A stretch of DNA of 62,715 bases, filler included. It is 6 parts of 6 records of this genome, joined end to end, with 100 filler letters (N's around TTAATTAATTAA, not from the genome) between each part and the next. Parts side by side here need not be neighbours in the genome. Positions count along the whole stretch, not along the records: positions 1 to 19,073 come from DRR378314_1455; 5 more parts are not named here. The stretch is one strand, 5' to 3'. Below are positions 910 through 44,117 of this stretch, piece after piece. Under the pieces are notes generated by a model that was not told the DNA's origin, did not search any database, and saw nothing but the letters and a program-made list of their open reading frames with translations. Each line of letters starts with the position of its first letter. Position 1 is the first letter of the stretch. Position numbers and translations under genes: made by a program.

Positions 910-1069
910 ACCTGGCCCCTTGAATCCGTCGGGTAAACGATGTCTCATCCCGTAAAGTGTAGTAAAAAGGTCTGACACCGGCAGTAGCAATTGAATGCAT
1001 CGGTTTGATGGGCCTCGGCGTAAAAACCCGAAGCAATCCACGCAATCGACCCAAACGGAGCAGGAACCT

Positions 1070-1885: not shown

Positions 1886-2586
1886 TATTCCTTCAGGGCA
1901 CCTTCTATGGTGCCCTTCACTGCCTCCCGTACCTCCTCCACGTCACGCCCCGCGGTTGAAACCGGCGGGTGAATCACGATATCGATAGTGCCCGCAGAGA
2001 ATGCCGCCGTGCCCTTGGGCAGGCAATCATGGGAACCCCGGATGGTCACCGGCAGGATGGGCAACCCGCCATCACGGGCAATCACAAATCCACCCTTCTT
2101 GAAGGGCAACAGCTTGCCATCCCAGGAGCGTGTTCCCTCGGGAAAAATCAGGATACTGGTGCCATTCGGCAACTGGGCCACGCCCCGTTTTATACTCTCC
2201 AGCGCATCACTGCCTTTGGCACGGTCAATGAATAGGTTGCGCGACGTCTCCAGGGCCAGGCCAAACAGCGGCACCTTGCGAAGCTCTTTCTTGATCACCC
2301 AGCGGTATTGCACCCCGAGCGCAAGAACCAGCGCCGGAGGATCAAGATAGGACGCATGGTTGCTGAGAATAACGTAGCGTTGGGTCGGGTCGATGTGTTC
2401 CAGGCCGGAGACGTTGAGGCGGATACCGGTGAGTTTGAGCATGCACCAGGCATACACCTGGGTACCATGAAAGGCGGCGTTGCCGCTGCGGCCGGCAAGG
2501 GCGGCGATAACAATGGGCAAGAACAGGATGAGTGTAAGCAGTGCGGCCCAGAACAGGATCCAGACGGCTTTGAGCATTCGCAACAT
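1861..2586 (-). CDS. plsC: Lysophospholipid / 1-acyl-sn-glycerol-3-phosphate acyltransferase (PlsC family)
   Basis: NHASYLD (HX4D), FIDR and FPEGTRS motifs; N-terminal TM helix. Overlaps the convergent hydrolase gene by 25 nt. Confidence 0.88.
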   Translation of the reverse strand: MLRMLKAVWILFWAALLTLILFLPIVIAALAGRSGNAAFHGTQVYAWCMLKLTGIRLNVSGLEHIDPTQRYVILSNHASYLDPPALVLALGVQYRWVIKKELRKVPLFGLALETSRNLFIDRAKGSDALESIKRGVAQLPNGTSILIFPEGTRSWDGKLLPFKKGGFVIARDGGLPILPVTIRGSHDCLPKGTAAFSAGTIDIVIHPPVSTAGRDVEEVREAVKGTIEGALKEYQLLKTSS

Positions 2587-2717
2587 GGAAGGTTACCTGG
2601 CAATCGCTACCTGCGGTTGTTAACGGGCAAAACAGCGCTAATAATCGCACACAAGAGCTAATAGGCTCAAAAGGCCAGTGTCGTTGTTGCTCGGCATCGT
2701 CAGCACACCGGCAACGT

Positions 2718-4406
2718 TCAATAGCCCATCGGGAAGTAGGAGATGCGCAGGTGAGCCCTTGGTTTGCGCTGTCCGTCGTGGTCGTCCAACCCCCACGCGA
2801 GAGCAGCATTGGCCGTCAGATGATCCGCCAGTCTCAGTCGCAACCCGAAACCGACACCGGTGATCTGCTCGTCCAGGGTATCGCCGGTGGCCACCTCTTC
2901 GTTATAAACGCCACCATGGTCCACGAACAGAAACCCCTCCCAGTTCTGGCGCTCCGGCAAATGGGCAATATAGGGCATCGGCAGGTTACGGATAATCTCC
3001 AGGTTGGCGTAATAGCCCATATCACCGATCAGATAGCCTTCCGGATAGCCGCGAACACTGGCAACACCCCCAACCTGGAACTGTTCCGCCGACGCAATGC
3101 TGGTGTCGTCGGTGTACTGCCCGGCCATGTTGAAGTAGCCACTCCACTGTTCGCCCAACAACTGGGTTCGCGCCAGGGAAAGCCTATATTTGGAGTAATA
3201 ATCGCTTTCCCGGGCCCGGGCATGGGCCCGGACAAACTGGTGAGAGGTAAACCACAGCCCCAGATCATCCTGACGCTCGGCATTGATGCCCAACGCCGGG
3301 CTGGTAATGTCCGCTGAGAGAATACGATCGCCATCCACCAGGGTGTCGCTGTTCCGGTCCTGGAGTTGAGCGGTCAGGTCCACTTTCCATTGGCGGTCGA
3401 CATACACGGGCTGGGTGAAACTGGCCTGGTAAATGGTGGAGTCACCACCCACATTTATGTCTGCCAGCGGACCGCTATCGATCTTCGTATCACTATCGGC
3501 GTAGAACAGGCCCAGACGGCCACCCCAGCGGTTCACGGGCACGTCGTAGCGGAGGGTACGGTCAGTAGCGCCGGAGGATTTGCTGGCAGATACCTCAAAC
3601 CTGTCACGGTAGCCAAACAGGCTGCGGTGAACAAAACGAGCGCCAAGGCGCGCCGACCCGGTGGAAGAACTCCCCGCGTTATCGGAAAACACCTCCAGCA
3701 CGTGGGTACGGGGTTCCTGCACCATCAGGTTGATATCGGTCTGGCCTTCTTCTTGACCGGGTTGGAGCTGCGCCGATACCTGAATGTCGCTGGTGCGGTT
3801 GAGCCAGTAAAGGTCGTCCTCCAGCGGCTCCAGTTCGAACAGATCCCCGGCTTCGAGACTCAGCGAACGGAGTATGTAGCCTGGTTTGGTGGAATCGTTG
3901 CCGGACAGATTGTAACGTCCCACCTCCCCTTCAATCAGACGGATCCTGAGTTGGCCATCCTCTATTTTCTGGGGCGGAATGAAGGCCTGGGCCGAAATAA
4001 AGCCTTTTTCGGCATAGGCACGATTGATGTCCAGAACAAGCCGCTGCAAATCCGTAAAGGTGACCGTTTCCTGCTCGTAGGGCTCCGCCAGAGCCTTCAG
4101 TTCCTGATCAGACAGTATCCGGGAGCTATCAAATGCTATGGCCTCAATACGGAAACGTGGCCCTGTCTCAGGACGCAGTTCAATACTGGGGGTGACCGCC
4201 TCGGTATCAACAGCAGGTTCTTCAGGCGGGCGATCCCGTCTCAGGGATTCGAGCTGCCGCTGTCGGCGTTCGGTTTCAAGGCTGCGCTCCTGTATCAATG
4301 CAGGGGACTCGATCGCCTGAGCCGTCGCCTCCATCACCGGCAGCGTCATCGCCATTACAGTGGCTACCAGGCCGATGCGACCCGTTTTGAACGGGCGGGA
4401 GATCAC
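2718..4406 (-). CDS. ShlB/FhaC/HecB-family TpsB outer-membrane transporter (type Vb)
   Basis: POTRA segments (YAEKGFISAQAFIPPQKI, LIEGEVG), DNAGS, and VRGY in the barrel loop. GTG 4406 has GGAG upstream and gives a signal peptide ending MEATA-QA; ATG 4439 is an alternative start. Confidence 0.93.
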   Translation of the reverse strand: MISRPFKTGRIGLVATVMAMTLPVMEATAQAIESPALIQERSLETERRQRQLESLRRDRPPEEPAVDTEAVTPSIELRPETGPRFRIEAIAFDSSRILSDQELKALAEPYEQETVTFTDLQRLVLDINRAYAEKGFISAQAFIPPQKIEDGQLRIRLIEGEVGRYNLSGNDSTKPGYILRSLSLEAGDLFELEPLEDDLYWLNRTSDIQVSAQLQPGQEEGQTDINLMVQEPRTHVLEVFSDNAGSSSTGSARLGARFVHRSLFGYRDRFEVSASKSSGATDRTLRYDVPVNRWGGRLGLFYADSDTKIDSGPLADINVGGDSTIYQASFTQPVYVDRQWKVDLTAQLQDRNSDTLVDGDRILSADITSPALGINAERQDDLGLWFTSHQFVRAHARARESDYYSKYRLSLARTQLLGEQWSGYFNMAGQYTDDTSIASAEQFQVGGVASVRGYPEGYLIGDMGYYANLEIIRNLPMPYIAHLPERQNWEGFLFVDHGGVYNEEVATGDTLDEQITGVGFGLRLRLADHLTANAALAWGLDDHDGQRKPRAHLRISYFPMGY

Positions 4407-4641
4407 TGTGATCGCTCCGTGGCGTATCCTTTCGTTCATCCAGCACTTCCAATTGGTCCAGTTGACGTTGTTTTTCCCGCAGCCGCTGCTCGGTTTCAAG
4501 ACGGTCGATCAGCTGTCGATCGGGTAGATCCCTGTTCACAATCTCTTCAGCCAGCCCCGGCGGATGCCATAGCAGCGCCATGACCAGCGCTGCCCGGCAC
4601 CGATCAGCGAATAGGGAAATGGATGGTGTCTCGTGGTGCAT
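4276..4641 (-). CDS. Small putative exported protein or remnant resembling a TpsB N-terminus
   Basis: ATG 4641 overlaps the 3' end of tpsA. Hydrophobic leader, then LETEQRLREKQRQLDQL, similar to TpsB LETERRQRQLESL. Its 3' end overlaps tpsB. Confidence 0.35.
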   Translation of the reverse strand: MHHETPSISLFADRCRAALVMALLWHPPGLAEEIVNRDLPDRQLIDRLETEQRLREKQRQLDQLEVLDERKDTPRSDHSDLPPVQNGSHRPGSHCNGDDAAGDGGDGSGDRVPCIDTGAQP

Positions 4642-7600
4642 TGCATTCACGCGCATAGGGATGTTGCTCGCAATGATTCTCCAGCGGTCCGGCCGCGGTG
4701 GCACTCATGGTGACACCGTTAACAAAGGGCTGGTCAAAGTAGTAGGACAGCAGGCTTCCTGCCCCCGGCCCAACCAGGGAGTCGACAGCACCGCCGATTG
4801 GCGGATCAACGATGTCGCTGAGCCTGGCTGCCTCATCAGCCGCCTGGGTCAGCAGGCTTTCTCCCAGCCCGGCCCGGTTATCCACCCGCAGACCGGGGCG
4901 GAAATCCACTGCGTACTGATTGGTGGTGACTGAATCCGCGGTCATCGCCAGGTTGAAGTAACCCGTGCCCGAATACAGCTGGACGTCCGCCTCTTCAAGG
5001 CTCTGGTCTTTATTATCCATCACCAGCCGCAGTGCCGGGGTGTTAATCTGCATGCGTTCACGAATGTAGCCATCACTGATCGACAGATTGTTGCCACCGT
5101 GGCTTATCATCGAGTTGACCGCGTACAGCCTGCCAATGGCCAGGGGCAGGCTGCCTCCAACCACCAGTTCTGCGAAGGTGGCAACGCCTGCCGCGTATCC
5201 GGTGACATCCAGCTGCAATGGGTTCGAGCCGGTATGCTCCACCCTGGCCCGAACCTGGTCGCCAGCCAATGTTGCCCGTTCGCCGACAGCCAGGTTATCG
5301 ACGCGCAACTCCTTCCTGGTCGCCAGGCTGGCCTCACTGGCCGCCGCAAAGTCGCTCACATGCAGCGTTTCATCCGATGTTATCCAGGCGCTTTCGCCTG
5401 CTGCACCGTTCAGGGTGCCACCATTTCCAGCACGGGCTTCCACCTTCAGCCACTCACCCACATTGCCGATTGAGCCAATAGCATCCAGCGTGAGGTTGTT
5501 ACCGGTGACGGTGCCCGGCCCCGTCAGATCACCCAGGGAGCTCAGTGACACATCGCCGGTCTGGCTGTTCACGTCTTCAACGATCAGGTCGCCGGACTGC
5601 TGGCTGAGATGGATACTGTCCCTGGCAGCGGCGGTAACGGCGGTGCCGCTGGCAGATGCGAGTTCAAGGGCATCCGGCCCGGCAATACCGCCGTTGGTCG
5701 CCCGAAGCTCAACCTGTCCTGCAGTCAGATTTGTGCCATCGCCATTGCCATCAACCAGATTGACGGAGGCACTCAGGCCTATCTCATTGGCACTGATATC
5801 GCCCACCGCCAGGTCCCCGGCGGTTTGGTGAACATAAAAACCCTGCGCGGCGGTGCCATCCAGACTACCGTCCTCAGCCATGGCCACCTGCAGCCATTGC
5901 GCCGGGCTGCCCACATTGCCGGACAGGCTCTCAAGGAAGAGGTTGCGGGCCAGGATCACCACGCCCTGGTCATCGTCGCCGGCGTATCGCAGGTCTTCGG
6001 CGGCGCTCAGGTCCACATCACCCGCCTGGGAGCGGATGCCGCCTGACGCACTGTTCAGGGTCAGGTCGCCCCCCGCAAACATCCGCACGTTGCCGCCCGC
6101 TTCCACGCTCGCCACGTTCAGCCCACGGTCCGGGCTATCAAGGTAAACCGCGTTATCCGACCGGGCGGTCAGAGTGCCTTCCGGGTCCAGGGCGATTTCC
6201 AGGGCATCGGCGAACTCACCGATATCACCGGCCTGCAGATCCAGGTTTGCCGCGCGAATATTCAGGGCGGCGCTGTCCTGGGCGTCGTAAAGGGTGCCCC
6301 CGGCACTGAGCCGGACATCGTTGACCGCGTAGAGTGTGGACACTGGCAGGTCCCCCGCCGCATTGAGCCACAGGCTGTCACCGGCCCTGGCGGTCAGTTC
6401 AGAGGTGACAACATTGAGCGGCCCCAGCAAATCGCCGCCTGGCCCGCCGGCCACACCGACACCCTGGGTTGCGGCTTCCAGCAGCAGGCTGCCGCCCGCG
6501 ACGACGTGATCAAGGCCGTGATCGACTCCGGACAATCCCTGGCCACCCTTGATGCGCACCTGGTCTCCGGCTTCAATGCGGTCGATCAGCAGGTCACCCT
6601 CAGAACCCAGGTACACCGACCCGCCTGCCCGTGCCTGCACTTCGCCGTCGGCGGCCAGGTCCAGATCGTCATAACGGGTGACGCGGATTTCCTGATCAGA
6701 TACGAACTCGATGTCGCCGCGCTCGGCGGTGGCCAGTACCAGCTTTTCGTCATCGCTCAAGTCCTGCCAGTTGCGTCCCTCGATATTGATGGTGGTTGGG
6801 TTGCTGCGGGTATTGGTGCCGATGTTGCCCGCCATTGCTTCCAGGCGGATGTTCTGCCCGCTGACGTTGGCTTCCTCGATGGTCACTTCGGTATCCGACA
6901 CTTCGGCCAGGATACCGGTGCTCAGGCTGTTGAGCAGCTGTGATTCGTTCCAGGCATAGCCCTCGGTCAGCCGGTTCCATTCCTCGCTGCCTTCGGTAAT
7001 GTCAAAGTTGCGGCCTGGTTCGAAAGCCACCGTTTCGCCGCCGTAGAGATCATGCAGCGTGCGGTACTCGTCGGTCTGGGCCTGCTCATAGTCACTGATC
7101 TGCTGGGCACTGAGGCCGCGTTCGCTGGCCAGGTAGTCGCGGCTTTGTTCATCCAGGGTGAACTCGTAATCCGGATCAAACGCGTCGGCACCACCCGGCT
7201 GCTGGCTGCGGAACTGCCAGTAGCGCTCGTATTCCCGCTCCTTGCGACGTTCGATGGCAGCCACATGGTCCCGGGCCGCATCGAGAGCATCCTCGCCGGT
7301 CAGGTCCATGCTGTCCCAGAGCGCCAGCAGTTCGTCACGGGCGCGCTGGTCCTGCTGTTCCACGGGGTTGTCGTCTATCAGGTCACCGTTCAGGGCGCCC
7401 AGCGACACCAGACCGGACTGTGACGCCACATCACGGATCAGCATATCGCCGTCGGTTTCAACCACATAGATCTCGCCAGCCGCCGAGGCCACCAGGCCTG
7501 TGCCATTCACGCCGGAGGTGTCCATGCGGACGAACCGGTCCGCGCTGCCGATACGCCCGTTCTCGGATCGCAGATCCACGCCTCTCGCGGTCACCAGACT

Positions 7601-10600
7601 ACCGGCATCGCTGGCAAGCAGGTTGCCATCGGCCGTCAGGGACACCTGCCCACCGTCGCTGGTGACCTGGTCAATCACCAGGTCACCGCTGTTTTCCCGC
7701 AGGTAGACGCCGCCTGTGCCGCCATCGGCATTGAGTACACCACCACCCAGGTTGGTCACCAGTGCCTGGTCGACACTGCCAATTCCGTTACCCGCCGTCA
7801 GCCGGATATCGCGCCCGCCAACCTGGCCGCCGGTGCCCTGGTTGCGGATGACATCGTTACTGGCAAGATCGGTCAGCCCGGCCTCATTGTTCAGGTTGCC
7901 CTCGACGCTGACAGCGCCCACGGAATTGACGTCAATCAGGCCCTGATCGAAGCCAGTGAAATTGATATCAATCCGGTTATCAGCGGCGATATTGTGGTTA
8001 TGCACCTGGCGCTCCACCACGTTGCGGGCGAAGTCCTTGTAGTCCTTGATGTAGAGGAGGTAATTGTCGATGTCCTGCCAGCCATCGGTGGTTTCGAACC
8101 AGTTCCCGGTGGTGCGGCTGGTGGTGTTGTCATACCAGTAGCGCGCGCCGCCCTTGTCGGCCAGAAGCACTACGTCGGCACCTACGGGCTCGCGGGCCTG
8201 CTGGTTAACCCTGGTAACGCCACTGTAGCTGCTCTCTTCGCCGGCATTGATGCCAAACCAGCGCTCACGGGTCAGCCGCCGGTTATCGGTCCAGCTGGCG
8301 CCATCACGCACGGTGAACGAGTAATACTGGTTCTGCTGGGGGTCGTAATAGGCCGTCCGGTCCGGGTGGTCACTGCCGCGGATCAGGCTGACCCGGGCAT
8401 CGGCTTCCAGGCGGCCACGAGGGTCGGACTGGTCAATATAATAATCGGTAATCCGCACCTGGCCGTCCACATCACGACCGGTGTCCAGTGACCGCAGGCG
8501 GATGTTGAAGTCGGTGGTGTTGTCCACCTCAATGCGGCCATAGCCATCCATCACGTTAATCTCACCATGGGAGGTATTCATGATGTGGCCGAACAGTTCC
8601 ACCTTGCCGCCCATGATGCGGGTGTTGTCCACCACCAGCTCGTTGGTCTGGGCATCGTAGAGTACCGGTATCTGGCTCCGGTCGTTTTCCACCGCCAGCT
8701 CGTTGATCTGGATGAAACGGTCTGCGTTACCTGCTTCCCAGGCGTTGCGATAATCCGCCAGGCTAGTGAAGTCCGTGTTGCCGTCGCCGTCATTATCCAG
8801 CGCAACGTTCTGCACCATGGCGTCATTGATGGTTACGCCGCGATCAGCGATGCCGCTCTGCACAATGCCATTCAGGTTCAGGTATTCCGCCGCCAGGAAG
8901 ACATTGTTGGCCGCCAACTGGGCCGGCGCTCCCGGGGCGCTGGGGTAAATGCTGTTGGTGGAGTAATCGCTACCGATGGACTCCCTGGATTCGATCAGCT
9001 CACGCCAGCGCGAAGCCGGTTCACCCTCGATATGCCGGAAGCCGTCGCGATAGCCGAGGGAAATATCCCGTCCAGCCTCGATGCGCAGGGTTTCGGCGGA
9101 AATATCGGCGCCGTCGTCATTGCCGGAGGCGCCCTTGACCAGAACACTGCCGTAGATGCTGTTGATCTCCACAAGACCATTGATGTTGGAGATGTCGTTG
9201 TCGACGAAAATATCCGGGGCCCGCTCATTACCCTGTGGTGAATAGGCGTTGGTCACCGAGATGGTGGGCGTGGTGTTGCCCGCGTTGATGAACTGGCTGA
9301 AACCAGCCTCACCACCCACCGGAACACCCAGTATCTTGCGGTTGCGGCTGTTCACTTCGGCCACCGAATTCACTCTCGCGCCGTTGAGGACAATAAAGCC
9401 ACCGGCCTCATCGGGGATGGTCATTTCGTTGGTGCGCAGGAAATTGTTGCTGCGGTTGCGGATTTCGATGCGGGTATCACCGGGTGCATCCAGCACGCCA
9501 TCACCGGCCAGGGTATCGGCATCCACATAGATGGAGCTGGAACGGGCGGTCAGGGCCTGCTCAACGGTCATCACGCGGGGGTCACCCGCGCCTTCCAGAG
9601 ATTCCAGTTTCACCTGAACGCTCAGCAATTCACCACGGTAGCGACGCAGCGCGTTGCCCAGATCCGAGGTGTCTGTGTCCGGCGCGATGATCTGGCCTTC
9701 CAGCGTGGCAATCCGATCATCGATGTACACAATTCGGGCTTCAGTTTCGGCAAGGGTGGTATCCAGATCGGCCCGCACCGAATCCAGATCCGATTCCGTC
9801 AGCGGGGTGCCTCCGTCCGGCAGGTTGCCGTTGATGTCGGCCAGGTCGCTGTCGATGGACTGTTGCAGGGAATTGATCTGGCCCTGGAGTTCTGCAATCT
9901 GGGTGGCATCGTCGTCCGGGTCCAGCCCATCGATCTGGGTCTGGAGCTGGGCCACCCGGTTACGGTCACCGATCAGCCCGTCCATCTCGGCAATGTCACC
10001 CGCCAACGCCGTTTCCCGGGCCCGGCGGCTGCTCAGTTCCTGCTCAAGATTCGACAGCTCCTCAATCAATTCCGGCGTGCCGCTTGAGGGTGTTCCGTTC
10101 TCGGTTTCTTCCAGCTCCGCAATCAGCGCTTCCAGCTCGGCCTTGCGCGCTTCCAGCTCGTTCACCAGCGGTTCATCGCTCACGCTCAGCAGGGTATCGT
10201 CAAAGCCTTCGCTGCTCTGCTCCTGGTTGACCGTGCCGTCCTCATTGATCACCAGTATCCGATGCCGCTCGGTGCCAACATGGATTTCACCGTTCACAAT
10301 CGCCGTGGCCTGGGAGGTATCGCTGCTGGAGCCACCCTTGATTTCCAGTGACACATCGTCGCCACCCACCAGGTTGCTGAAGAAGCTGCCCACCGCAGCC
10401 AGCGCTTCCCGGTACAGATCCTTGCCGACGCCGGAACCGCTGACATTGCGGGTACCCCGGTCGGCACTCAGGCTGACGTCGCCCACGGTTTCGATGCTGG
10501 CGCCGTCGTCAATAACCAGGGTCGTGTTCTGGCGCAGCGCAGCGTCGGCATCGGGTTTGGTCTCGATGGGCAGGACTGTCTTGTTCCAGAGATCGGTGCG

Positions 10601-13600
10601 TGCCACCAGATTAAAGCTGGACCGGTTTCCGGTGGTATCCCGGCCGGTCATCATGCGGACATCTTCACCGGAAACCACGCGGGCACCGCTGGCCAGGGCG
10701 ATCACATTGCTGACTGTCGATTCGGACCGGGACTGGCCCTGGGCGGCACCGGCGCCGCCGTAAGTCTTGGCGTTGGCACTGGTGCGGATGTCGGTCAGGT
10801 TGCGGATGGCCAGGTCGATATCCCCTTCCGAGGTGACCTCGGCATTGCTACCAATCTGAATCCGGCCTTCGTTGGTGTCGTTTTCCACCGACGACTCAGC
10901 GCGGGCCACGGAAATGGCGCCTCCGGAGTCCAGCTTGACCCGGTCACGGGCGAAGATGTCGTTGAGGATTCCGAAGCTCAGATGTCCCGCCCCATCGACC
11001 ACCGTCAGGCTGGCACCCTCTCCGATATCAATCAGTGTGCGGTTGTTGATGTAACTGTTGCTGCGGGCTGCGGCCGCATCCAGAACCCCGCCGGAGCCGG
11101 ATTCGACATTGAAACCGGCGCGTTCAGGCTTGACCACCCGGTTGATACCACTGAACGCCATGGCGTCCGCCAGCAGGCTGGCACCGTCATCCACCAGGAC
11201 CTCGACATGACTGTTTACGCGGTTCTCCGCCCAGGCACCGCTGGCTCCCAGAAGTGACGCGTTGGTGCTGTTGGTGGTGGCGTTGAAGCGAGCGGTATGG
11301 TCCGCCGTAACATTCAGGGTATCCACATCCACGTTGTCCAGCACACCGGCGGCGCCGATCTGAACCCGGGTGGTGCTGTTGTTGATGGTAGTGGACTTGG
11401 AGGCCACACCGGAGACCACACCACCGCTGCCGGCCAGGGCGTCCGCATAGGTGGTGTCCTCGCCTTCCGCATCCAGATTGAGGGTGCCGCCGGTTAACAG
11501 AAGGTTGTCACCCAGCACCGTCTCATAAAGGGTATCGGCCCGGGTTTCCGCGAAATTGGCACCCACCGCGATCAGGCCGGCGTTGATGCCGATGGCCTCG
11601 GAGGTCTGGTTCGAACGGCCCCAGGCAAGAATATTGGCGGTGTCGAGTACATCAATCACCGCACCGTCACCAATGCCGGAACGCACGGTGACGTTATTCG
11701 CTGACTCACCCTCGGTAGCGCTGAGGCCCAGCAGCAGGCCACCACCGGCCCCGAAGGCGCGGCTGGTGACGGACGTGCCGTCACTGGCAAGGTTATGGCG
11801 GGCAATCAGGTCGAGGTCGTAGGTGTCGACGCGGTCCGCGGACAGATCCGTCTCCGCCGAGGCGTTGACGTTGGCGTAGGCCAGGGAAACCCCGGCACGG
11901 TAGGTCGCAGCCAGGCTGGCGCCTTCGGCAACCGCATCGGTGTCCGGGGTGACGTCGGCGGTCATGGATATCCGGCCACCCACGCGATCATCGTTACTGT
12001 CTCTCTCATCTGCAATCAATACCGCGCCGTCTGCCACCTGGGTGAGCACCCGACTGTCATCGTCCGCTTCGGCCAGCGAGCCATTGCCGGAAATAATGCC
12101 CCCGGCGGCTGATCGCGCCCGTGACTCGACCCGGCCCGAGGATGCCGAGGCCAGCTCAATGCCGGCAAAGTCGCTGATTTGCGCATCGCCGCCCACGCGA
12201 GTCCGTACCAGGGTGTTGCCGGCCGGATCCGATTCGCCCTTCTCTGCTTTGGCGTAGACCAGGCCCACGGCAAACGCGCCGATGGCGGCGCCGTCACCGT
12301 CCACCTCCACGCTGGTTTCATCGGTGGCGGACAGGGTCACGGTGTTACTGCCATTACCCAGAAGTTGGCCGTCCACGGTGGTGGTGACCCGATTATCCAC
12401 ATCGGCAATGCCCACCGCCGCGCCCAGTCCCACCAGTCCACCGCCCCCGGCAAACAGGCGGATGTCGGCGGCTTTGCGGTCCGGGCTGATCTGACTGGCG
12501 AGGGCCTCCACTGAGACATCACCTTCAGCGCGGATCACGGTATCGCGACCAATTTCGGTCTCGACCTGCGTCTTGATAAACGACAGACCCACCGCGCCGC
12601 CCAGGCCGACGGTTCCGCCAATACCCGCTGCGTCCGCTTCGGTCGAAACCGAGGTGCGATCGGTAGCGGTAACGTTCACGTCGCTCGCGTTGACCTCGCT
12701 GGTGCCGGTGACGCTGGCGGCCGTGCTGAACAGGTTGTCGGAATAGGCGGAGTCGGCCACCGAGGTACTGGCGCGGTTCTCAACCTGGGCCAGCTCATCT
12801 TCATCCTCCAGCCCCTCTTCCACTGCGGTGCCTTCCAGCTTGTTGCCGCCGGCCATGCTGTCCAGACTGCTCAGGGTGCCACTGCCACCGTTGTCGACCT
12901 CACTGGCGGCATCGTCGTTCAGGGAATCCCCCAGCAGGGTGATCACCGCCAGGGCACTGATACCGGCATTGCCACCGGCGGAGAACGCAGCGGCCCGGTT
13001 ATCGATTTCGCGAATAGAGTCCGCCGCAACGGTCACATTGCCGCTGCTGTGAACCGTACTGTCGCTGAGGGTGGCCTGCGCACCCCCTTTGATAATGTTG
13101 ACGATAGCGCCGGCACCGATCCCTTCGGTACCGCCAATGGTAAGCGCGCCGGCCTTGTTGTCGACGGCGAACCCGTCCCGGGCGGTGATGTCCAGATTGC
13201 CGGTGGGCGATGTGTCGGCACCCAGATTGGTCTGGGACACCCGTGCGGAAGTCTGGTTCGACATCAGGTTGACCGAGGCCATACCGGCAATGGCCTGGGC
13301 TCCAGCGGCGGCGCCACCCACCACAATGCTGTTGGCGGTTGTCTGGCTGTCGGCGGAAACCTGCGTATTGCCAGACACCTGGGTCAGATCGGCCTTTTCG
13401 TCATCGCTGCCTTCAATGTAGGCACGGGTGACGTTCTCGCTCATGCCCAGGCTGAAGGTGGCGGCAACACCAACGCCACCCCCGGCCACTGCGCCACTGG
13501 TCAGCGCCAGGGCATTCAGAGCCTGTGCGGTAACCGACAGATCATTGGCCGCCACAGAGGAACGGGCAATATAGGCGTCGGTTTCGGCGTCAAACCGCAA

Positions 13601-16600
13601 CACCGTGCCGGTGCCGGCAACCCCGACCAGCCCCGCCGCACCACCCACGGCCAGCGACGAGGCGCCCTGGGTGGCATAGGCATCCACACCCACATTGCCG
13701 GCCGCCGACACATCCGCATCTGCCACGTAGGCACGGGTGGCCCGAGTGATCAGGTGGTTATCGGATGCCGCACCCACACCGCCCTTGCCGGCGGCGAAGA
13801 CACCTGCGAAGCCATTGCCGTAGGCGTGATTGGAGGCACTGATGTCGACATCCTGGGCGACACCGCCGGCGCCGATGCCATTGATCACTGAATCCTGAAT
13901 ACTCGCCTGGGTTTCGCCATCGATCACGTTGACTGTGGCCAGTACGCCCACACCCACTTTGCCGCCAGCCACGTTGGCCACCAGGGTCTCGACGTGCTGG
14001 CTGGAAGACGCGTTCACCGCCAGACCGGTGACGGCCTTGTCCTGTTTCATGGACGGGATATCCAGCGCCTGGTAGCTGGCGATGTCGACATTGGCGTCCT
14101 GATTGACGGCGCCGAGGGTGTTGCCGTCTTCATCTTCCAGGCGGCCTGAGCGTACCGCGAAGCTGTCATTGCCGTCCTCGGCGCGAGCGGTTACCTCGGT
14201 ATCCGCCCCGGTAATATTGGCAGCCGTGGTGCCGTAGATCTCGTTCACCACCGCCGAAGCCCCCACGCCGGCCGAGGCTCCAATCGCCACACCGCCGGCC
14301 AGCACGCTGATCCGGTCGTCGCTTTCCGCAAGCACGCCGACATTCCTGGCGGCATCGACACGCGCACCGTCGCGGATTTCCGCCAGCACGTCGTTGTCCA
14401 GCCGGTTAACCGCCACCGAGCCACTGATACCGACCTGCCCACCAAACGCAGCGCCCACGGCGGCTGTCTCGATCACCGCCAGCGACGCCGCGTCGATCAC
14501 CACACTGCTGCCCTGCCAGTCGGTGTTCTCGCCACTGATCGCTGCCTCGACGGTATTGCCGGAAATCCGGTTAATCGCCACCGAGCCGCCAATGGCCGCC
14601 TTACCACCACCGGCCACAGAACCCGCCAGCGACTGTATAGTGCCGTCGTTGGAGGCAGTAACCTCGGTATCATCCGTGATGATGACACTGTCCCCGTTAA
14701 TCACCGCCCGGGTGTTCCGGTCGCTGACGCTGTTATTGGTAACCGAAGCCGCCAGCCCGAAGCCCTTGCTGCTGATGGCGGCCCCCACCGCAGCCGACAG
14801 CGCCTGGATGGTGCCACCGCCGCGCGCATCGACGACCAGTTGGCCGGCATCGATGCGGGCCGCATTCAGGGCCGCCCGGGTGTCGCCCTGGATCTGGTTC
14901 TGGGAATAGCCGCCGGCAATACCAGCCGCACCCTGCTGGCCTCCGGCTGCGGCGACAGCGCCAGACAGCGCTGCGATGTCCAGGCCACTGCTGTCTGCAC
15001 CGAGCTGGAGTTCACCAGCGCGGACCCTGGCCCCGTTTATTTCCGCCAGGGTATCGCCGTCTATGCGGTTCACCGATGCTTGCCCGGCAACGCCGATGCC
15101 CATCTTCTTGCCGCCGGTGGTGCCACCGCCGGAACCAGAACCGCCTCCGCTGCCGGACCCGCCACCGGTACCGCTGCCCGTGGCGACAACACCGGCGAAG
15201 GAATAACTTTCAATTTCGCCGTCAGAGGTTGCCTTCACTTCCAGCAGGTCATTAATCACTAGTTCCGGACGATCCGGATCAACCGGGGCGTTAACATCCG
15301 CATTTCCCAGATAGGCGTGTGCATTGCTATCAATGGTATTCAACGCCACCGACGCACCGATACCGCCCTGCTTACTGAGCACAAAGGCGCCGCCGGTGTT
15401 CAACACGTCAAAACGATTGTCTGCAGTGACTTTGGCGGAACCGGAAACCAGATCCGCCAGATCGCCAACATAGGCGCTGGAAGTCAGACTGGCGTCAAAG
15501 ATCGATACCGCCCCTTCCACGCCCACTTGCTCCGCCCGGCCACCGGCAAAGGTGATTTCGAGTGCGTCGAGCTCGGCATCTGCGTCCACCGAGAGGGCTT
15601 CCGTGGCCCGAATGCGCGCCCCGTCCGCCACATAGGCATTGGCACCGCCGTTGATAGTGACCATGTTGACGTTGCCGCCGAGCGCATTCTTAGAAGCGCT
15701 GATCTTGGGCAGCACACCACCGGCATTGATGATATCCGCCGCCGAACGGGCGACCACATCCACATTGCGGCCTTCAGCGGTACCTTCCACCCCGGCAACC
15801 GCCTGGTTGTTGGCATGGAACAGGTTGGCACCGGCAGCCAGCCCCAGAGTGCTTCCTTTGCTGCTGTTGAACACGCCGGAATTCATCAACAGGTCAGACA
15901 GGTCAGTAGTCAGGGTATCCAGCGTGTCCGCCGGGCGATTCAAGTCCAGAACAATGGCGTCCCTCGGGTCCGGAATCAGGCTTTCGGCGCTGATCGCCAC
16001 ATCGTCGGTGGCCAGCACAGAGCCTCCCGCCTCAACCAGGGAACCGGCCCGGTTGTCATAGTCGCTCCAGGCTACTGCCCCGCCAATTGCGACGCCGGTG
16101 GAAGTGGAATTGGTGTCGGCGCCGATGAACGTATCGTTCTCGATCAGGGTCGCCAGCTCTGCGTTAGCGGCACTGTCGATGCGACCCTGATCCTGCACCC
16201 GGATATCCGCCCGGTTGGTTTCCTGGGCGATGGACACCGCCCCGGACAGATTGAATTTGCCCTCCTGGTACACCGGGAAGAACAGGCTGGCAATGGTCTG
16301 GCCACTGCCTGTGACCGGTGTTAGCAGGGAGGCCAGCATATTCTGCTGAACCTGGCTGGCGTAGTTGTTGAACTTGGCAAACCCGCGAAGGCTACCCCCC
16401 AGGGAGCTGGCGGAACTGGACGTGGAATGGGTGCTGTCGATGCTGGCATCGACCTTGACGTCGCCGGTGGTGCTGGTGACCGTCCCGGCAATGTCTACGC
16501 CGGCGTTGGTTTCTACATCGCTGTACCCAAGCGCCGCCCCAACCGAGCTGCCGCTCCGCTTCTCCGAGGTTGCGGACGAGGAAACCTCACTTTTAGCCTC

Positions 16601-18766
16601 CGCTGCAATGCGATTGCTGGCGCCAGTCAGCTCTGTTCCCTGACCAATGTCCACATGGGCGTTGGTTTCGGATTGGGCGACGGAAAAGGTGATATTGAAT
16701 GGTATCGAGTTGCTGGAAATGACGTTGTTGACGTCCGCTGTTGTGTCATTGATCGCTCTCGCCATAAGCTCGAGGTCGCCGGTGGCAACCAGGTCCGCGT
16801 TATCGGCGATGGTCACTGTGGCATTGGAGGTGGAATCGGACCATTCGCCACCCACCGGAACCACGCCGCTGCCAAGGGCAATGGGATTGGCGCGGGAGTT
16901 GGATTCCGCAAGAAGGTTGAGTGTGTCATTGGCCTGCAACACCGAGTTGCCGCTGATGGTGATATCGGATCCAGCCTCGGTTTTGGAGTAAAAGGCGCTG
17001 CCATCGAACCCCCACTGCAATTCGGCAAAGGTCTCCGGCTGGAGCTGGTCGTCGGAATCGTCGTTCAGCTCCGGTAGCAAGGAAGTATCGGCCCGGGCAT
17101 CAAGGGAAAGGTTATTGCCTTCGATGCGGGTGTTATTGATCCGGATGGAAGCACTGGCGTTCTTGTCAAAGCCAAGACGGTCAGACGCATAGGCCTCCAG
17201 GGTTACGTCACCTCCTTTGAGGGTGGCGCCATCGAGATCAAAGCTGACATCGCTATCCAGATTCGTGACCCGCGCAAGAAATTTCACTTCCTCGGAAACA
17301 TCCACACCGTAGACATCCAGCAAACCTGCGATGGCGTCGGAGACCGAGTTGCGGGTCAGATCATCGTTCAGGTTGGTCAGCAGGATATCGCCACTGTCAT
17401 ACCCTTCATTGGCCCAGGCCAGCAGTTGGGAGCCGGCGCCCAGGTTGATGGTGGCGGCTCGCAGGGTAATGTTGCTGGAATCACCCACGGAGTCGTCGTT
17501 CTCATGGGCCGCAATCCTTGTGCCCTCATCGGCCGAGTCATCCACCGCCACATCACGGGTGGAAATCACCACCCCGTCCGCCACATTGATGGTGTCTGCC
17601 TCGATCTCATAGTCCACGCCGCCACCGCCAAGCACATTGGCGTTCACGGTTTCCGGATCGATATAGACGCGACCAGCTTCGCCGTTTGTAGCCCGGCCCA
17701 GGAATTGGCCACCGTCGAGGTTGACGATACGGTCAGCACTGAACTCGATGAAGCCGCCATCGCCACTGTCACCGGCGCTGACATCCATGACCGCACCATT
17801 GCGGAAATGGCCGTCGCGCTCGGCTATGGCAATGATTTCACCGCCATCGGAGTTTTCCCCATTGCCTCGGGCACTGACGCGGGCGCCGTCACTCACCGTG
17901 ATGTCGCGGCCTGCACGCAGGTCGATTCGTCCGGCGGCTTTGCCTTCGCGGGCGTCGCTGGCAATGGTACCCGCAACATCAAGGTCGTTGCTGGCAAGAA
18001 TCTCAACGGTATTGCCCACCACCCGAACACCGGCACCCTGTTCGGCACCTCCGGTATTCACCACATCGGCGATATCAACCGCGCCCGACTCCATCAGGGT
18101 GCCGCTGCGAATCAACCCCGCCGCCGACACATCAAATCCCCGTATAGTCACGCCTTCCAGCGCATTGATCTCTCCCTGAACCGAAATGAGCCCGTCCCGG
18201 GAAACGGGCACCTGGCCCTCCATCAGTTGGCTGACGGCCTGGTTGCGGATTTCTCCGCCTTCAAACATACGGTCCATGAAATCGCGGTTTGGGGTGGACA
18301 AGTGCAGGCTGCCGACATTCACCTGGCCACTCTGGCCAATAACAACACCGAAAGGGTTGGCGAAATAGACGTTGCCGCCGATGTCACCGTTCTTGTAACT
18401 GTTCAGAATGCCATGGATGTCAGAGCGTTTGCCGTGCACCAGGTTCAGCAGGTGATCAGTATTACCGGGAAGGTGAAGATTGACGGTGTTGCCCCGGTGA
18501 ACGTCGAAGCGGTCAAAACTGTTGAAAGCCTTGTCGCCGCGGATGGTGTTGGTCCTGACATCGGTGCGGTTGCCATTGATCTCAAGCCGGGTGTCTGTTC
18601 GGCCGTCAGTGACAATCTGGGGTGCTGCTGCAAGGAGGAGTGGGTTGAAAGTAAGCGCGGCTGACAGTGTGTATACAAGTGGGGCTTTAAGAGGCTGAAA
18701 TCTTGAACGCGTGGAATGAGGTCGGTACCCGCTGAGACGGGCCCGGTATGAGGTGCTTGCGTTCAT
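4604..18766 (-). CDS. Giant TpsA, filamentous haemagglutinin / leukotoxin LktA-like adhesin (~4720 aa)
   Basis: Uninterrupted 14-kb ORF. ATG 18766 follows GGAAGGA. Signal peptide, TPS domain (AFNSFDRFDV...ANPFGVVIG), G/A/S/V/N/D-rich beta-helix-type repeats, C-terminal TAAG-x5-C-x8-C. Directly upstream of tpsB. Confidence 0.92.
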   Translation of the reverse strand: MNASTSYRARLSGYRPHSTRSRFQPLKAPLVYTLSAALTFNPLLLAAAPQIVTDGRTDTRLEINGNRTDVRTNTIRGDKAFNSFDRFDVHRGNTVNLHLPGNTDHLLNLVHGKRSDIHGILNSYKNGDIGGNVYFANPFGVVIGQSGQVNVGSLHLSTPNRDFMDRMFEGGEIRNQAVSQLMEGQVPVSRDGLISVQGEINALEGVTIRGFDVSAAGLIRSGTLMESGAVDIADVVNTGGAEQGAGVRVVGNTVEILASNDLDVAGTIASDAREGKAAGRIDLRAGRDITVSDGARVSARGNGENSDGGEIIAIAERDGHFRNGAVMDVSAGDSGDGGFIEFSADRIVNLDGGQFLGRATNGEAGRVYIDPETVNANVLGGGGVDYEIEADTINVADGVVISTRDVAVDDSADEGTRIAAHENDDSVGDSSNITLRAATINLGAGSQLLAWANEGYDSGDILLTNLNDDLTRNSVSDAIAGLLDVYGVDVSEEVKFLARVTNLDSDVSFDLDGATLKGGDVTLEAYASDRLGFDKNASASIRINNTRIEGNNLSLDARADTSLLPELNDDSDDQLQPETFAELQWGFDGSAFYSKTEAGSDITISGNSVLQANDTLNLLAESNSRANPIALGSGVVPVGGEWSDSTSNATVTIADNADLVATGDLELMARAINDTTADVNNVISSNSIPFNITFSVAQSETNAHVDIGQGTELTGASNRIAAEAKSEVSSSATSEKRSGSSVGAALGYSDVETNAGVDIAGTVTSTTGDVKVDASIDSTHSTSSSASSLGGSLRGFAKFNNYASQVQQNMLASLLTPVTGSGQTIASLFFPVYQEGKFNLSGAVSIAQETNRADIRVQDQGRIDSAANAELATLIENDTFIGADTNSTSTGVAIGGAVAWSDYDNRAGSLVEAGGSVLATDDVAISAESLIPDPRDAIVLDLNRPADTLDTLTTDLSDLLMNSGVFNSSKGSTLGLAAGANLFHANNQAVAGVEGTAEGRNVDVVARSAADIINAGGVLPKISASKNALGGNVNMVTINGGANAYVADGARIRATEALSVDADAELDALEITFAGGRAEQVGVEGAVSIFDASLTSSAYVGDLADLVSGSAKVTADNRFDVLNTGGAFVLSKQGGIGASVALNTIDSNAHAYLGNADVNAPVDPDRPELVINDLLEVKATSDGEIESYSFAGVVATGSGTGGGSGSGGGSGSGGGTTGGKKMGIGVAGQASVNRIDGDTLAEINGARVRAGELQLGADSSGLDIAALSGAVAAAGGQQGAAGIAGGYSQNQIQGDTRAALNAARIDAGQLVVDARGGGTIQALSAAVGAAISSKGFGLAASVTNNSVSDRNTRAVINGDSVIITDDTEVTASNDGTIQSLAGSVAGGGKAAIGGSVAINRISGNTVEAAISGENTDWQGSSVVIDAASLAVIETAAVGAAFGGQVGISGSVAVNRLDNDVLAEIRDGARVDAARNVGVLAESDDRISVLAGGVAIGASAGVGASAVVNEIYGTTAANITGADTEVTARAEDGNDSFAVRSGRLEDEDGNTLGAVNQDANVDIASYQALDIPSMKQDKAVTGLAVNASSSQHVETLVANVAGGKVGVGVLATVNVIDGETQASIQDSVINGIGAGGVAQDVDISASNHAYGNGFAGVFAAGKGGVGAASDNHLITRATRAYVADADVSAAGNVGVDAYATQGASSLAVGGAAGLVGVAGTGTVLRFDAETDAYIARSSVAANDLSVTAQALNALALTSGAVAGGGVGVAATFSLGMSENVTRAYIEGSDDEKADLTQVSGNTQVSADSQTTANSIVVGGAAAGAQAIAGMASVNLMSNQTSARVSQTNLGADTSPTGNLDITARDGFAVDNKAGALTIGGTEGIGAGAIVNIIKGGAQATLSDSTVHSSGNVTVAADSIREIDNRAAAFSAGGNAGISALAVITLLGDSLNDDAASEVDNGGSGTLSSLDSMAGGNKLEGTAVEEGLEDEDELAQVENRASTSVADSAYSDNLFSTAASVTGTSEVNASDVNVTATDRTSVSTEADAAGIGGTVGLGGAVGLSFIKTQVETEIGRDTVIRAEGDVSVEALASQISPDRKAADIRLFAGGGGLVGLGAAVGIADVDNRVTTTVDGQLLGNGSNTVTLSATDETSVEVDGDGAAIGAFAVGLVYAKAEKGESDPAGNTLVRTRVGGDAQISDFAGIELASASSGRVESRARSAAGGIISGNGSLAEADDDSRVLTQVADGAVLIADERDSNDDRVGGRISMTADVTPDTDAVAEGASLAATYRAGVSLAYANVNASAETDLSADRVDTYDLDLIARHNLASDGTSVTSRAFGAGGGLLLGLSATEGESANNVTVRSGIGDGAVIDVLDTANILAWGRSNQTSEAIGINAGLIAVGANFAETRADTLYETVLGDNLLLTGGTLNLDAEGEDTTYADALAGSGGVVSGVASKSTTINNSTTRVQIGAAGVLDNVDVDTLNVTADHTARFNATTNSTNASLLGASGAWAENRVNSHVEVLVDDGASLLADAMAFSGINRVVKPERAGFNVESGSGGVLDAAAARSNSYINNRTLIDIGEGASLTVVDGAGHLSFGILNDIFARDRVKLDSGGAISVARAESSVENDTNEGRIQIGSNAEVTSEGDIDLAIRNLTDIRTSANAKTYGGAGAAQGQSRSESTVSNVIALASGARVVSGEDVRMMTGRDTTGNRSSFNLVARTDLWNKTVLPIETKPDADAALRQNTTLVIDDGASIETVGDVSLSADRGTRNVSGSGVGKDLYREALAAVGSFFSNLVGGDDVSLEIKGGSSSDTSQATAIVNGEIHVGTERHRILVINEDGTVNQEQSSEGFDDTLLSVSDEPLVNELEARKAELEALIAELEETENGTPSSGTPELIEELSNLEQELSSRRARETALAGDIAEMDGLIGDRNRVAQLQTQIDGLDPDDDATQIAELQGQINSLQQSIDSDLADINGNLPDGGTPLTESDLDSVRADLDTTLAETEARIVYIDDRIATLEGQIIAPDTDTSDLGNALRRYRGELLSVQVKLESLEGAGDPRVMTVEQALTARSSSIYVDADTLAGDGVLDAPGDTRIEIRNRSNNFLRTNEMTIPDEAGGFIVLNGARVNSVAEVNSRNRKILGVPVGGEAGFSQFINAGNTTPTISVTNAYSPQGNERAPDIFVDNDISNINGLVEINSIYGSVLVKGASGNDDGADISAETLRIEAGRDISLGYRDGFRHIEGEPASRWRELIESRESIGSDYSTNSIYPSAPGAPAQLAANNVFLAAEYLNLNGIVQSGIADRGVTINDAMVQNVALDNDGDGNTDFTSLADYRNAWEAGNADRFIQINELAVENDRSQIPVLYDAQTNELVVDNTRIMGGKVELFGHIMNTSHGEINVMDGYGRIEVDNTTDFNIRLRSLDTGRDVDGQVRITDYYIDQSDPRGRLEADARVSLIRGSDHPDRTAYYDPQQNQYYSFTVRDGASWTDNRRLTRERWFGINAGEESSYSGVTRVNQQAREPVGADVVLLADKGGARYWYDNTTSRTTGNWFETTDGWQDIDNYLLYIKDYKDFARNVVERQVHNHNIAADNRIDINFTGFDQGLIDVNSVGAVSVEGNLNNEAGLTDLASNDVIRNQGTGGQVGGRDIRLTAGNGIGSVDQALVTNLGGGVLNADGGTGGVYLRENSGDLVIDQVTSDGGQVSLTADGNLLASDAGSLVTARGVDLRSENGRIGSADRFVRMDTSGVNGTGLVASAAGEIYVVETDGDMLIRDVASQSGLVSLGALNGDLIDDNPVEQQDQRARDELLALWDSMDLTGEDALDAARDHVAAIERRKEREYERYWQFRSQQPGGADAFDPDYEFTLDEQSRDYLASERGLSAQQISDYEQAQTDEYRTLHDLYGGETVAFEPGRNFDITEGSEEWNRLTEGYAWNESQLLNSLSTGILAEVSDTEVTIEEANVSGQNIRLEAMAGNIGTNTRSNPTTINIEGRNWQDLSDDEKLVLATAERGDIEFVSDQEIRVTRYDDLDLAADGEVQARAGGSVYLGSEGDLLIDRIEAGDQVRIKGGQGLSGVDHGLDHVVAGGSLLLEAATQGVGVAGGPGGDLLGPLNVVTSELTARAGDSLWLNAAGDLPVSTLYAVNDVRLSAGGTLYDAQDSAALNIRAANLDLQAGDIGEFADALEIALDPEGTLTARSDNAVYLDSPDRGLNVASVEAGGNVRMFAGGDLTLNSASGGIRSQAGDVDLSAAEDLRYAGDDDQGVVILARNLFLESLSGNVGSPAQWLQVAMAEDGSLDGTAAQGFYVHQTAGDLAVGDISANEIGLSASVNLVDGNGDGTNLTAGQVELRATNGGIAGPDALELASASGTAVTAAARDSIHLSQQSGDLIVEDVNSQTGDVSLSSLGDLTGPGTVTGNNLTLDAIGSIGNVGEWLKVEARAGNGGTLNGAAGESAWITSDETLHVSDFAAASEASLATRKELRVDNLAVGERATLAGDQVRARVEHTGSNPLQLDVTGYAAGVATFAELVVGGSLPLAIGRLYAVNSMISHGGNNLSISDGYIRERMQINTPALRLVMDNKDQSLEEADVQLYSGTGYFNLAMTADSVTTNQYAVDFRPGLRVDNRAGLGESLLTQAADEAARLSDIVDPPIGGAVDSLVGPGAGSLLSYYFDQPFVNGVTMSATAAGPLENHCEQHPYARECNAPRDTIHFPIR

Positions 18767-18815
18767 GATGCGGTCCTTCCCTGGCACTAGCCATCCGGAA
18801 AACAGACCTTGATTG

Positions 18816-18828
18816 TTACATTATGTAA
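18816..18828. promoter_or_regulatory. Palindrome TTACAT-N-ATGTAA upstream of tpsA, candidate operator
   Basis: Perfect 6-bp inverted repeat in an AT-rich stretch about 50 nt upstream of the tpsA start. Confidence 0.35.
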
Positions 18829-18947
18829 ATGTTAATTGAAGAAAAATGTTCATGATTTGATCATTTAGCTTTATCAACTAATGGTGCGCAACCGAAAAGT
18901 CCTTTAGCGGCGGGCTACCGGGAGGACAAAACAAAACGGGCGCCCAC

Positions 18948-18973
18948 AAAAAAAGGCAGCCGAAGCTGCCTTT
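18948..18973 (-). terminator. Rho-independent terminator after the cold-shock gene
   Basis: Minus strand reads AAAGGCAGC-TTCG-GCTGCC followed by a T run, about 20 nt after the csp stop. Confidence 0.9.
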
Positions 18974-18994
18974 CTGGCGGTGCCCTACTATCCG

Positions 18995-19073
18995 TTAGAT
19001 AGCAGTAACGTTTTCCGCCTGAGGACCTTTCTGGCCCTGGGTAACGGTGAACTCAACCTGCTGGCCTTCTGCC
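18995..19073 (-). CDS. Cold-shock protein, C-terminal fragment
   Basis: AEGQQVEFTVTQGQKGPQAENVTAI*, a CspA-family C-terminus; cut by the contig end. Confidence 0.92.
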
Positions 19074-19173
19074 NNNNNNNNNNNNNNNNNNNNNNNNNNN
19101 NNNNNNNNNNNNNNNNNTTAATTAATTAANNNNNNNNNNNNNNNNNNNNNNNNNNNNNNNNNNNNNNNNNNNN
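19074..19173. other. Artificial contig spacer
   Basis: 44 N + TTAATTAATTAA (stop codons in all six frames) + 44 N. Confidence 0.98.
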
Positions 19174-19313
19174 ATCGGAGGAGAGAGCGTGCGAATGCGA
19201 GATCGAACGACGACAACGCTCGAGCATCATGCTGGCGAGCGCAGCGGCGAGCAAGAGGCCACAACGCACACGCGCACACCCACGCATGCGCGTTTTCTCC
19301 CGTACATACGCAC

Positions 19314-21994: not shown

Positions 21995-25296
<3,302 letters not shown>

Positions 25297-25358
25297 GTGC
25301 GAGAATCGAGAGCGAAGTGAGATCGTCGCGCGTTTCAACGTACTAATGGCACCTCTTC

Positions 25359-44110: not shown

Positions 44111-44117
44111 CAGCACC

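Follow-up and report, generated by a model that had tools for sequence, protein, structure and literature searches.

Organisation of the tpsAB locus

We analysed a stretch of DNA of 62,715 nucleotides (the window; positions count along its whole length, filler included) that encodes a giant two-partner-secretion exoprotein, TpsA, and its transporter TpsB, and we focus on the C-terminal tail of TpsA, where a TAAG motif precedes a pair of cysteines. The window contains five artificial joints of the form N44-TTAATTAATTAA-N44 (19074–19173, 25359–25458, 34239–34338, 40766–40865, and 56404–56503; no strand applies) and thus consists of six contigs placed end to end. Because the contigs were joined artificially, gene neighbourhoods cannot be read across the joints, and the context of tpsAB is confined to contig 1 (1–19073). 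This contig is Marinobacter-like, as its alanine dehydrogenase is 76–91% identical to named Marinobacter proteins, which accords with the marine gammaproteobacterium proposed in an initial annotation of this DNA. By the same gene, G424 was the closest Marinobacter-like genome examined (90%), followed by G378 (89%), and the genus of G424 serves below as a proxy for that of the tpsAB host.

The tpsA open reading frame (ORF) spans 4727 codons on the minus strand (4604–18787), being open back to a GTG at 18787 and closed by the stop codon at 4604–4606. Its probable start is the ATG at 18766 (ORF residue 8), and a 95% identical homologue, P0003, begins at the same methionine; tpsA would therefore occupy 4604–18766 and encode ~4720 amino acids. 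The limits first assigned to the locus correspond to this ATG (18766) and to the end of the tpsB ORF (2718). The full-length protein gave no Pfam match, and domains were identified by scanning ten overlapping 600-aa pieces against Pfam and NCBIfam. The two-partner secretion (TPS) domain (ORF residues 57–275; 17963–18619, minus strand) matched PF05860 at 49.5 bits (cut-off 33.5), and the LktA-family FxxPxG adhesin N-domain (residues 75–221) matched NF012204 at 169.4 bits (cut-off 60), with a further match to TIGR01901. LktA-type 53-residue tandem repeats cover approximately residues 1035–2097 (12497–15685, minus strand), where two overlapping pieces matched NF012206 (LktA_tand_53; cut-off 50) at 168.8 and 133.1 bits, with eight stretches in each and weaker matches at the edges. 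None of the ten pieces matched an RTX or retention-module family. TpsA is rich in Ala, Gly, Thr, and Ser, with 12.6% Ala and 12.0% Gly.

Adjoining tpsA, ~100–165 bp downstream on the same strand, lies tpsB (2718–4499, minus strand), which encodes an Omp85-family transporter of the ShlB/FhaC type with Pfam matches to ShlB (105.1 bits), POTRA_2 (66.9 bits), and Omp85 (42.2 bits). The tpsB ORF opens at a TTG (4499), and an ATG at 4439, followed by a signal-peptide-like stretch, is its probable start. Judged by their sequences, tpsA and tpsB constitute a two-partner (type Vb) secretion pair of the LktA family; the previous description of an LktA-like TpsA is thereby borne out by the NF012204 match (169.4 bits), the NF012206 repeats, the Pfam TPS domain, and a cognate TpsB with ShlB and POTRA_2 domains.

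An E/L/Q-rich stretch was also observed inside TpsA (residues ~2876–3065; 9593–10162, minus strand). It gave weak SMC, coiled-coil, and PspA-like matches (E values of 3e-5 to 0.05), all far under the family cut-offs, and may be a coiled-coil insert that breaks the beta-helical filament.

The TpsA tail combines a LapG motif with a terminal cysteine pair

The last 31 residues of TpsA (TAAGPLENHCEQHPYARECNAPRDTIHFPIR) read TAAG-PLENH-C-EQHPYARE-C-NAPRDTIHFPIR. TpsA contains just two cysteines in 4727 residues, Cys4706 and Cys4715, both within the last 22 (21 and 12 residues, respectively, before the C-terminal end). They bound a C-x8-C loop (4643–4672, minus strand; codons 4670–4672 and 4643–4645) that would form a disulfide plug, or "cysteine hook", and are followed by a twelve-residue extension, NAPRDTIHFPIR (4607–4642, minus strand). 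Five residues ahead of the loop stands the sole TAAG of the protein (residues 4697–4700; 4688–4699, minus strand), which fits the motif [T/A/P]AA[G/V] described for the periplasmic protease LapG. A cut between Ala4698 and Ala4699 would leave a stub of 29 residues. The codon positions of the tail features agree exactly with those first reported, and the absence of any other Cys or TAAG, previously noted over ~4720 residues, was confirmed over all 4727 codons. The order of a canonical LapG motif followed by a Cys pair at the extreme C-terminus likewise matches the CdrA-type tail that had been proposed.

Given the composition of TpsA, 0.61 TAAG would be expected in the whole protein, and the chance of finding one in any 40 positions is 0.5%, compared with 2.7% for the looser [T/A/P]AA[G/V]. 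Two randomly placed cysteines would both fall within the last 31 residues with a probability of 4.3e-5. These chance figures are indicative only, the tail features having been noticed after the fact.

We next consider the predicted structure of this region. An AlphaFold2 model of the TpsA C-terminus had a mean predicted local distance difference test (pLDDT) score of 80. Model residues 40–230 (protein residues 4467–4657; 4817–5389, minus strand) form a confident beta-helix (pLDDT >90), with a helix at model residues 218–233; this conserved C-terminal beta-helix domain occurs in many other large proteins with beta-strand repeats, as seen in the homology searches described below (87 HMMER matches; A1, an alignment of 37 sequences of the TpsA C-terminal region). 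Beyond it, model residues 243–272 have a pLDDT below 50. This 30-residue linker (residues 4670–4699; 4691–4780, minus strand) ends in the TAAG and contains a strand-like motif, LLSYYFDQPFVNGVTMS, that aligns in A1 with the xLVSFxGxPVS and GPAVNLG motifs of relatives. The Cys-loop segment then regains a pLDDT of 68–83, with a short helix at model residues 274–281. Alignment A1 concurs with the model on all four parts (beta-helix, helix, linker, and Cys-loop segment). The linker would thread the TpsB pore, and a flexible linker ending in a protease site beside a compact plug, as modelled here, is the geometry that release by LapG needs.

Structure comparisons yielded generic beta-helix similarity. 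VIA-align returned generic beta-helix matches only, the best being the CAP C-terminal domain (Z 10.0) and the secretion domains of HMW1, FHA, and HxuA (Z 7.8–9.0). Foldseek gave no match against the PDB at E ≤ 0.001, a PDB sequence search with A1 gave none, and the last 70 residues of TpsA had no usable match in the ESM Atlas.

Conservation of the tail among homologues

A word-indexed search restricted to long proteins recovered only two relatives, P0003 (95% identity; on a 65.9-kb contig) and P0004 (81%; on an 80.8-kb contig), whose tails are identical to that of TpsA apart from one R/K change in P0004. We then ran a HMMER scan of the last 300 TpsA residues against 1.84 billion representatives and obtained 87 matches at E ≤ 0.001. 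Most of these cover only approximately residues 50–210 of the query; P0004 and P0005 alone can be aligned as far as the last residues. P0005, a fragment of 466 residues, is 37.6% identical over 250 residues, and its tail reads SATASGPHHAHCAQHPDAVECNALKEEIFVEAR. Its C-x8-C loop matches those of TpsA, P0003, and P0004 in both spacing and distance from the end, such that the extension past the loop is equally long, and it keeps the S-A-T-A-x-G-P context and the flanking His (HCxQHPxAxEC). Over the last 47 residues, 26 are identical between TpsA and P0005, compared with 37.6% over the 250-residue alignment; the tail is thus better conserved, and under stronger constraint, than the body. Conservation of the tail in homologues, the check put forward with the initial annotation, gave a mixed result: P0003 and P0004 have both the Cys pair and TAAG, and P0005 has the Cys pair with TASG in place of TAAG.

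Among the 87 representatives sharing the C-terminal domain, 17 end in a Cys pair that falls inside the final 30 residues and encloses a loop of 5–15 residues. Three of these have a LapG motif in the 40 residues ahead of the first Cys: P0004, which belongs to the cluster of TpsA itself, P0043 (TAAG), and P0087 (AAAG). P0043 is an N-terminally cut fragment of 2138 aa on a 9.65-kb contig; it ends in ...PPTAAGGESSG...LITFTGVPVSFETECNPELDPACAK, with TAAG 30 residues ahead of a C-x7-C at the very end, and thereby offers another candidate, independent of TpsA, for a Cys-hook tail that LapG could cut. The remaining 70 representatives lack a terminal Cys pair; in 21 of these, a GPAVNLG-like motif occurs among the final 45 residues.

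Further searches returned no additional tails. The last 300 residues of TpsA had no relative among genome contigs, tblastn against plasmids returned no relative, and the last 130 residues had no match among proteins of 229–2000 aa. A metagenome scan with the TpsA N-terminus found 19 loci (best identity 48%), none of which reaches the C-terminus, as judged by hmmsearch with A1.

Related giants carry other tails

We searched 151 sampled genomes of the G424 genus with the A1 profile and found solid matches in six, as well as one weak match. The six (G812, G714, G785, G751, G807, and G732) encode giant ORFs of 5249–5981 aa with the A1 domain (E values of 4.5e-51 to 1.9e-22), which are called TpsA-like by their C-terminal domain alone. 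Their homology to TpsA ends ~92 residues before the end of TpsA, and their own tails continue with ...SAVNLDD followed by acidic residues, or a similar sequence, containing neither Cys nor TAAG. When 401 genomes sampled from the order were searched with A1, the seven solid matches again lacked Cys and TAAG in their tails. The final ~90 residues therefore act as a variable module attached to a conserved domain, and the Cys-loop-plus-TAAG version is rare among the genomes searched.

LapG and LapD in the proxy genus

PF06035 (LapG family) was found above cut-off in 116 of the 151 genomes of the G424 genus, including G424 and G378, and PF16448 (the periplasmic N-domain of LapD) in all four genomes tested (G424, G378, G812, and G785), with V. 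venusta as the positive control. In G424, lapG adjoins type II secretion genes and not lapD. As both genes are common in the proxy genus, a host devoid of lapG, which would contradict release by LapG, is not what these genomes indicate, by proxy only. Pfam matches of the ORFs elsewhere in the window revealed neither lapG nor lapD, an absence that carries no meaning because the window consists of six unrelated-looking contigs.

V. venusta has a canonical Lap system, in which the TAAG substrate reads ...DATAAGAGAGGGGG. Using this species as the sole query, we found a LapA-like N-terminal retention module in one of six Marinobacter-like genomes (G812, with the site PAAG in EAPAAGLEGG) and not in the other five. 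As a separate observation, these five (G424, G378, G785, G714, and G732) have a LapG-type gene and no LapA-like module detectable with that query; LapD was found in G424, G378, and G785, the three of them that were tested. A further side observation concerns G202 (Halomonas sulfidaeris ATCC BAA-803), in which lapG and lapD look broken (L096, ~9850–11744): lapG contains an in-frame TAG and lies in pieces, and lapD is divided into two ORFs, both genes being intact in V. venusta and most of the genus.

Resemblance to known anchored and released adhesins

In the sections of the cited papers available to us, LapG cleaves CdrA of Pseudomonas aeruginosa (2154 aa) within a TAAG near the C-terminus, after residue 2105 and before residue 2106 (PMC13405001; cleavage also in PMC7484184 and PMC4694147), and CdrA is retained in CdrB by an intramolecular disulfide, the "cysteine hook" (bioRxiv 10.1101/198937, which also gives the LapG motif [T/A/P]AA[G/V]). 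TpsA and TpsB resemble this pair in the order of the genes, in a C-terminal TAAG followed by a Cys pair near the very end, and in the proposed logic of a disulfide hook in the pore combined with a cut at the di-alanine by LapG, gated by LapD and cyclic di-GMP (c-di-GMP). They differ in size (2154 aa for CdrA and 4720 aa for TpsA), in that CdrA has its own repeat stalk in place of the LktA-family N-domain and 53-residue repeats, and in the length of the stub, which is 49 residues in CdrA and would be 29 here.

HMW1 and HxuA of Haemophilus influenzae are held by a periplasmic disulfide anchor according to a review seen in part (PMC5422565), and TpsA shares with them two cysteines in the last ~20–30 residues (here 21 and 12 from the end). 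No LapG motif is reported for HMW1 or HxuA, which are much smaller and belong to other TpsA families. The HMW1 operon additionally has a glycosyltransferase gene, hmw1C (PMC5422565), whereas here a PlsC-type acyltransferase gene follows tpsB. LapA-type RTX adhesins share with TpsA the protease motif and the proposed principle of a plug that blocks an outer-membrane pore from the periplasm; in those adhesins, however, plug and motif are N-terminal and export is by type I secretion. TpsA, which gave no RTX or retention-module match and whose neighbour is TpsB, is not a member of that group.

The concept of a LapG-controlled TpsA outside P. aeruginosa is already published: in its available part, the review PMC6584795 refers to Cooley et al. 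2016 for putative two-partner systems under LapG control, one in Burkholderiales bacterium JOSHI_001 and one in Rhizobium tropici CIAT 899. A literature search covering titles and abstract openings found no description of such a TpsA in Marinobacter, which is weak evidence of absence.

A proposed model for tethering and release of TpsA

Based on these observations, we propose the following model. The 4720-residue TpsA would be exported N-terminus first through TpsB and fold into a long beta-helical filament once outside, with its last ~60 residues staying behind and the flexible linker remaining in the TpsB barrel. The Cys4706-x8-Cys4715 loop, oxidised in the periplasm, would be too bulky for the pore, so that the filament is tethered at the surface. 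TAAG would then lie at the periplasmic mouth as a canonical LapG site; upon a fall in c-di-GMP, LapD would free LapG, which would cut between the two alanines, remove the 29-residue stub, and shed the filament. We infer four of these steps, namely the disulfide, retention at the surface, the presence of LapG in the tpsAB host, and the cleavage itself. It is likely that a disulfide plug of the HMW1/HxuA/CdrA type anchors this giant TpsA at the cell surface. The whole chain, including cleavage by LapG at TAAG, is a real possibility that falls somewhat short of probable, and the part played by LapG is plausible as a reasonable hypothesis, given that the motif is exact, its position is right, and most of the proxy genus has the machinery.

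Several observations weigh against control by LapG. The loose [T/A/P]AA[G/V] occurs four times in TpsA against 3.2 expected, and is not rare overall. LapA regions upstream of TAAG (Helix 1, DPxxxLxx) are critical for LapG binding and a degenerate AAAIG is not cut, according to the accessible part of bioRxiv 10.1101/198937, and no DPxxxL was seen by eye in the 40 residues ahead of TAAG in TpsA. P0005, the sole distant relative that shares the tail, has a TASG that departs from [T/A/P]AA[G/V], and 14 of the 17 Cys-pair tails lack the motif in the 40 residues upstream of the first Cys. All six genomes with giants have PF06035, and their giants' tails contain neither Cys nor the motif; since these genomes have lapG and lack such tails, the presence of LapG does not predict a Cys/TAAG tail. 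The lapG and lapD evidence comes from genomes of the proxy genus and not from the source genome, the other contigs of the window belonging to other organisms. Finally, the CdrA tail was compared by description and not by sequence, and convergence is possible. A complex prediction of V. venusta LapG (residues 43–237) with Ca and the last 68 TpsA residues scored 0.01 and counts neither as support nor as counter-evidence.

A rival reading is an anchor without LapG control, in which the Cys loop tethers TpsA, LapG is inactive at the tail, the small residues of the linker (SAT-A-A/S-G-P) yield TAAG as a by-product, and any release occurs through another protease or through shearing. P0005 keeps S-A-T-A-x-G-P and the Cys loop with Ser at the second Ala, most related Cys-pair tails do without the motif, TpsA abounds in Ala and Gly, and the HMW1 and HxuA anchors function without LapG as far as the sections seen of PMC5422565 report. 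Against a by-product stand the low expectation for an exact TAAG within 40 positions, its placement exactly at the predicted junction between the disordered linker and the loop, and the fact that lapG and lapD commonly occur in the proxy genus; we consider an anchor alone possible, if somewhat doubtful. It is unlikely, in our assessment, that the tail is no anchor at all and instead serves secretion, quality control, or folding, for example as a beta-helix cap or a His/Cys metal site (His4705, Cys4706, His4709, and Cys4715), with TpsA fully released as are many TpsA toxins. The His residues flanking the Cys are conserved in P0005, the NCBIfam family is named after a leukotoxin, and giants with the same C-terminal domain lack any Cys, so the domain itself needs no Cys loop. 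Nevertheless, the periplasm is an oxidising compartment, and loops (5 to 15 residues) and flanks vary among relatives, which is more readily reconciled with a bulky disulfide than with a fixed metal site. Moreover, the anchors of HMW1, HxuA, and CdrA, shown experimentally according to the parts of the literature at hand, are defined by a terminal Cys pair.

That the Cys pair and TAAG are both without function is highly improbable. The tail was indeed picked after the sequence had been read, and the loose motif is not rare in a protein of this composition, but the tail is the best-conserved part between proteins that are 37.6% identical, and the only two cysteines of 4727 residues both fall in the last 22 and recur at the same positions in three further clusters. 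Our best explanation remains that the tail anchors TpsA and may also be cut by LapG. An extension of it, in which the beta-helix cap bears interchangeable tail cassettes of ~90 residues (Cys plug, Cys plug with LapG site, or Cys-free AVNLG/acidic) that set the fate of the filament as tethered, shed under c-di-GMP control, or other, with LapDG control arising here independently of CdrA by convergence and a TpsA of this kind possibly serving as a main LapG substrate in Marinobacter-like strains that have lapG and lapD but no LapA-like module recognised by the query used (five of six genomes), is speculative and, taken as a whole, rather doubtful.

If the model holds, control of the CdrA kind would also exist in another TpsA family and another size class, perhaps through convergence. 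If LapG cuts the tail, c-di-GMP-gated shedding in type Vb secretion would not be peculiar to P. aeruginosa CdrA, and its reach would extend to the largest size class of TpsA and to marine oil-degrading, biofilm-forming bacteria. With the last ~90 residues modular and the domain before them conserved, sequence could also serve as a simple guide to whether a giant TpsA stays tethered or is released.

The tpsAB insertion and the remaining contigs

Directly downstream of tpsB, contig 1 encodes a 241-aa PlsC-type acyltransferase (1861–2586, minus strand; PF01553, 100.7 bits), which may be an accessory gene of the TPS system. The gene is missing at the corresponding site of G424, and five other genomes yielded best matches of only 28–35% identity. 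Comparison with G424 further showed that window positions 1–1950 match L161:11320–13285 (80%) and positions 18945–19073 match L161:13348–13475 (95%). In G424, just 62 bp separate these two stretches, so that the intervening ~17 kb (1951–18944), comprising the acyltransferase gene, tpsB, tpsA, and the region upstream of tpsA, represents extra DNA in the tpsAB strain. The upstream region inside this insertion is A+T-rich (41% G+C). A search of the insertion for flanking repeats, a tRNA, and a sigma-70 consensus promoter found none. At the end of contig 1 (18945–19073, minus strand), the sequence reads as the 3′ end of an upstream gene followed by a terminator-like hairpin and T-run; no tool named this reading frame, which we take to be cold-shock-protein-like.

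The other contigs differ in affinity. Contig 4 (34339–40765) is Halomonas/Vreelandella-like, with a BioA 85–89% identical to proteins of that group; contig 5 (40866–56403) is 98% identical to genome G001; and contig 6 (56504 to the window end) is syntenic with G001 at 70–75%, its best plasmid matches being to Paracoccus, Ruegeria, and Leisingera. With Marinobacter-, Halomonas/Vreelandella-, and Rhodobacteraceae-like contigs side by side, the source looks like a mixed bin or a metagenome. A sequencing-run lookup found 0.06–0.15 of the sampled words in four marine-metagenome runs from two studies, from which no habitat is inferred.

One candidate host and one candidate proxy genome were considered and rejected. 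Halomonas/Vreelandella, suggested by the BioA of contig 4, was ruled out by the contig joints; in that genus, the TpsA C-terminus was found in none of 101 genomes and a LapG homologue in 66 of 101, counts with no bearing on the tpsAB host. G001 was discarded as a proxy, as it shares only window positions 40866–56403 (98%) and has no TpsA relative; its orphan PF06035 gene is irrelevant to the tpsAB host, and a search for AceK in its family (0 of 201) was uninformative.

Contig 5 (15.5 kb) carries genes for a TRAP transporter, an AraC regulator, a glutathione S-transferase (GST), hydantoinase A/B, an amidotransferase, and an aminotransferase. It matches the start of G001 contig C14 at 98%, versus 70–75% for contig 6, a contrast suggestive of recent DNA sharing or of the bin containing a second strain. 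Contigs 2 and 3 (19174–34238) have almost no Pfam matches over ~15 kb, apart from an AAA fragment (24990–25346) and a WD40 beta-propeller protein (30049–30825), and their AT skew is strongly positive, reaching 0.2.

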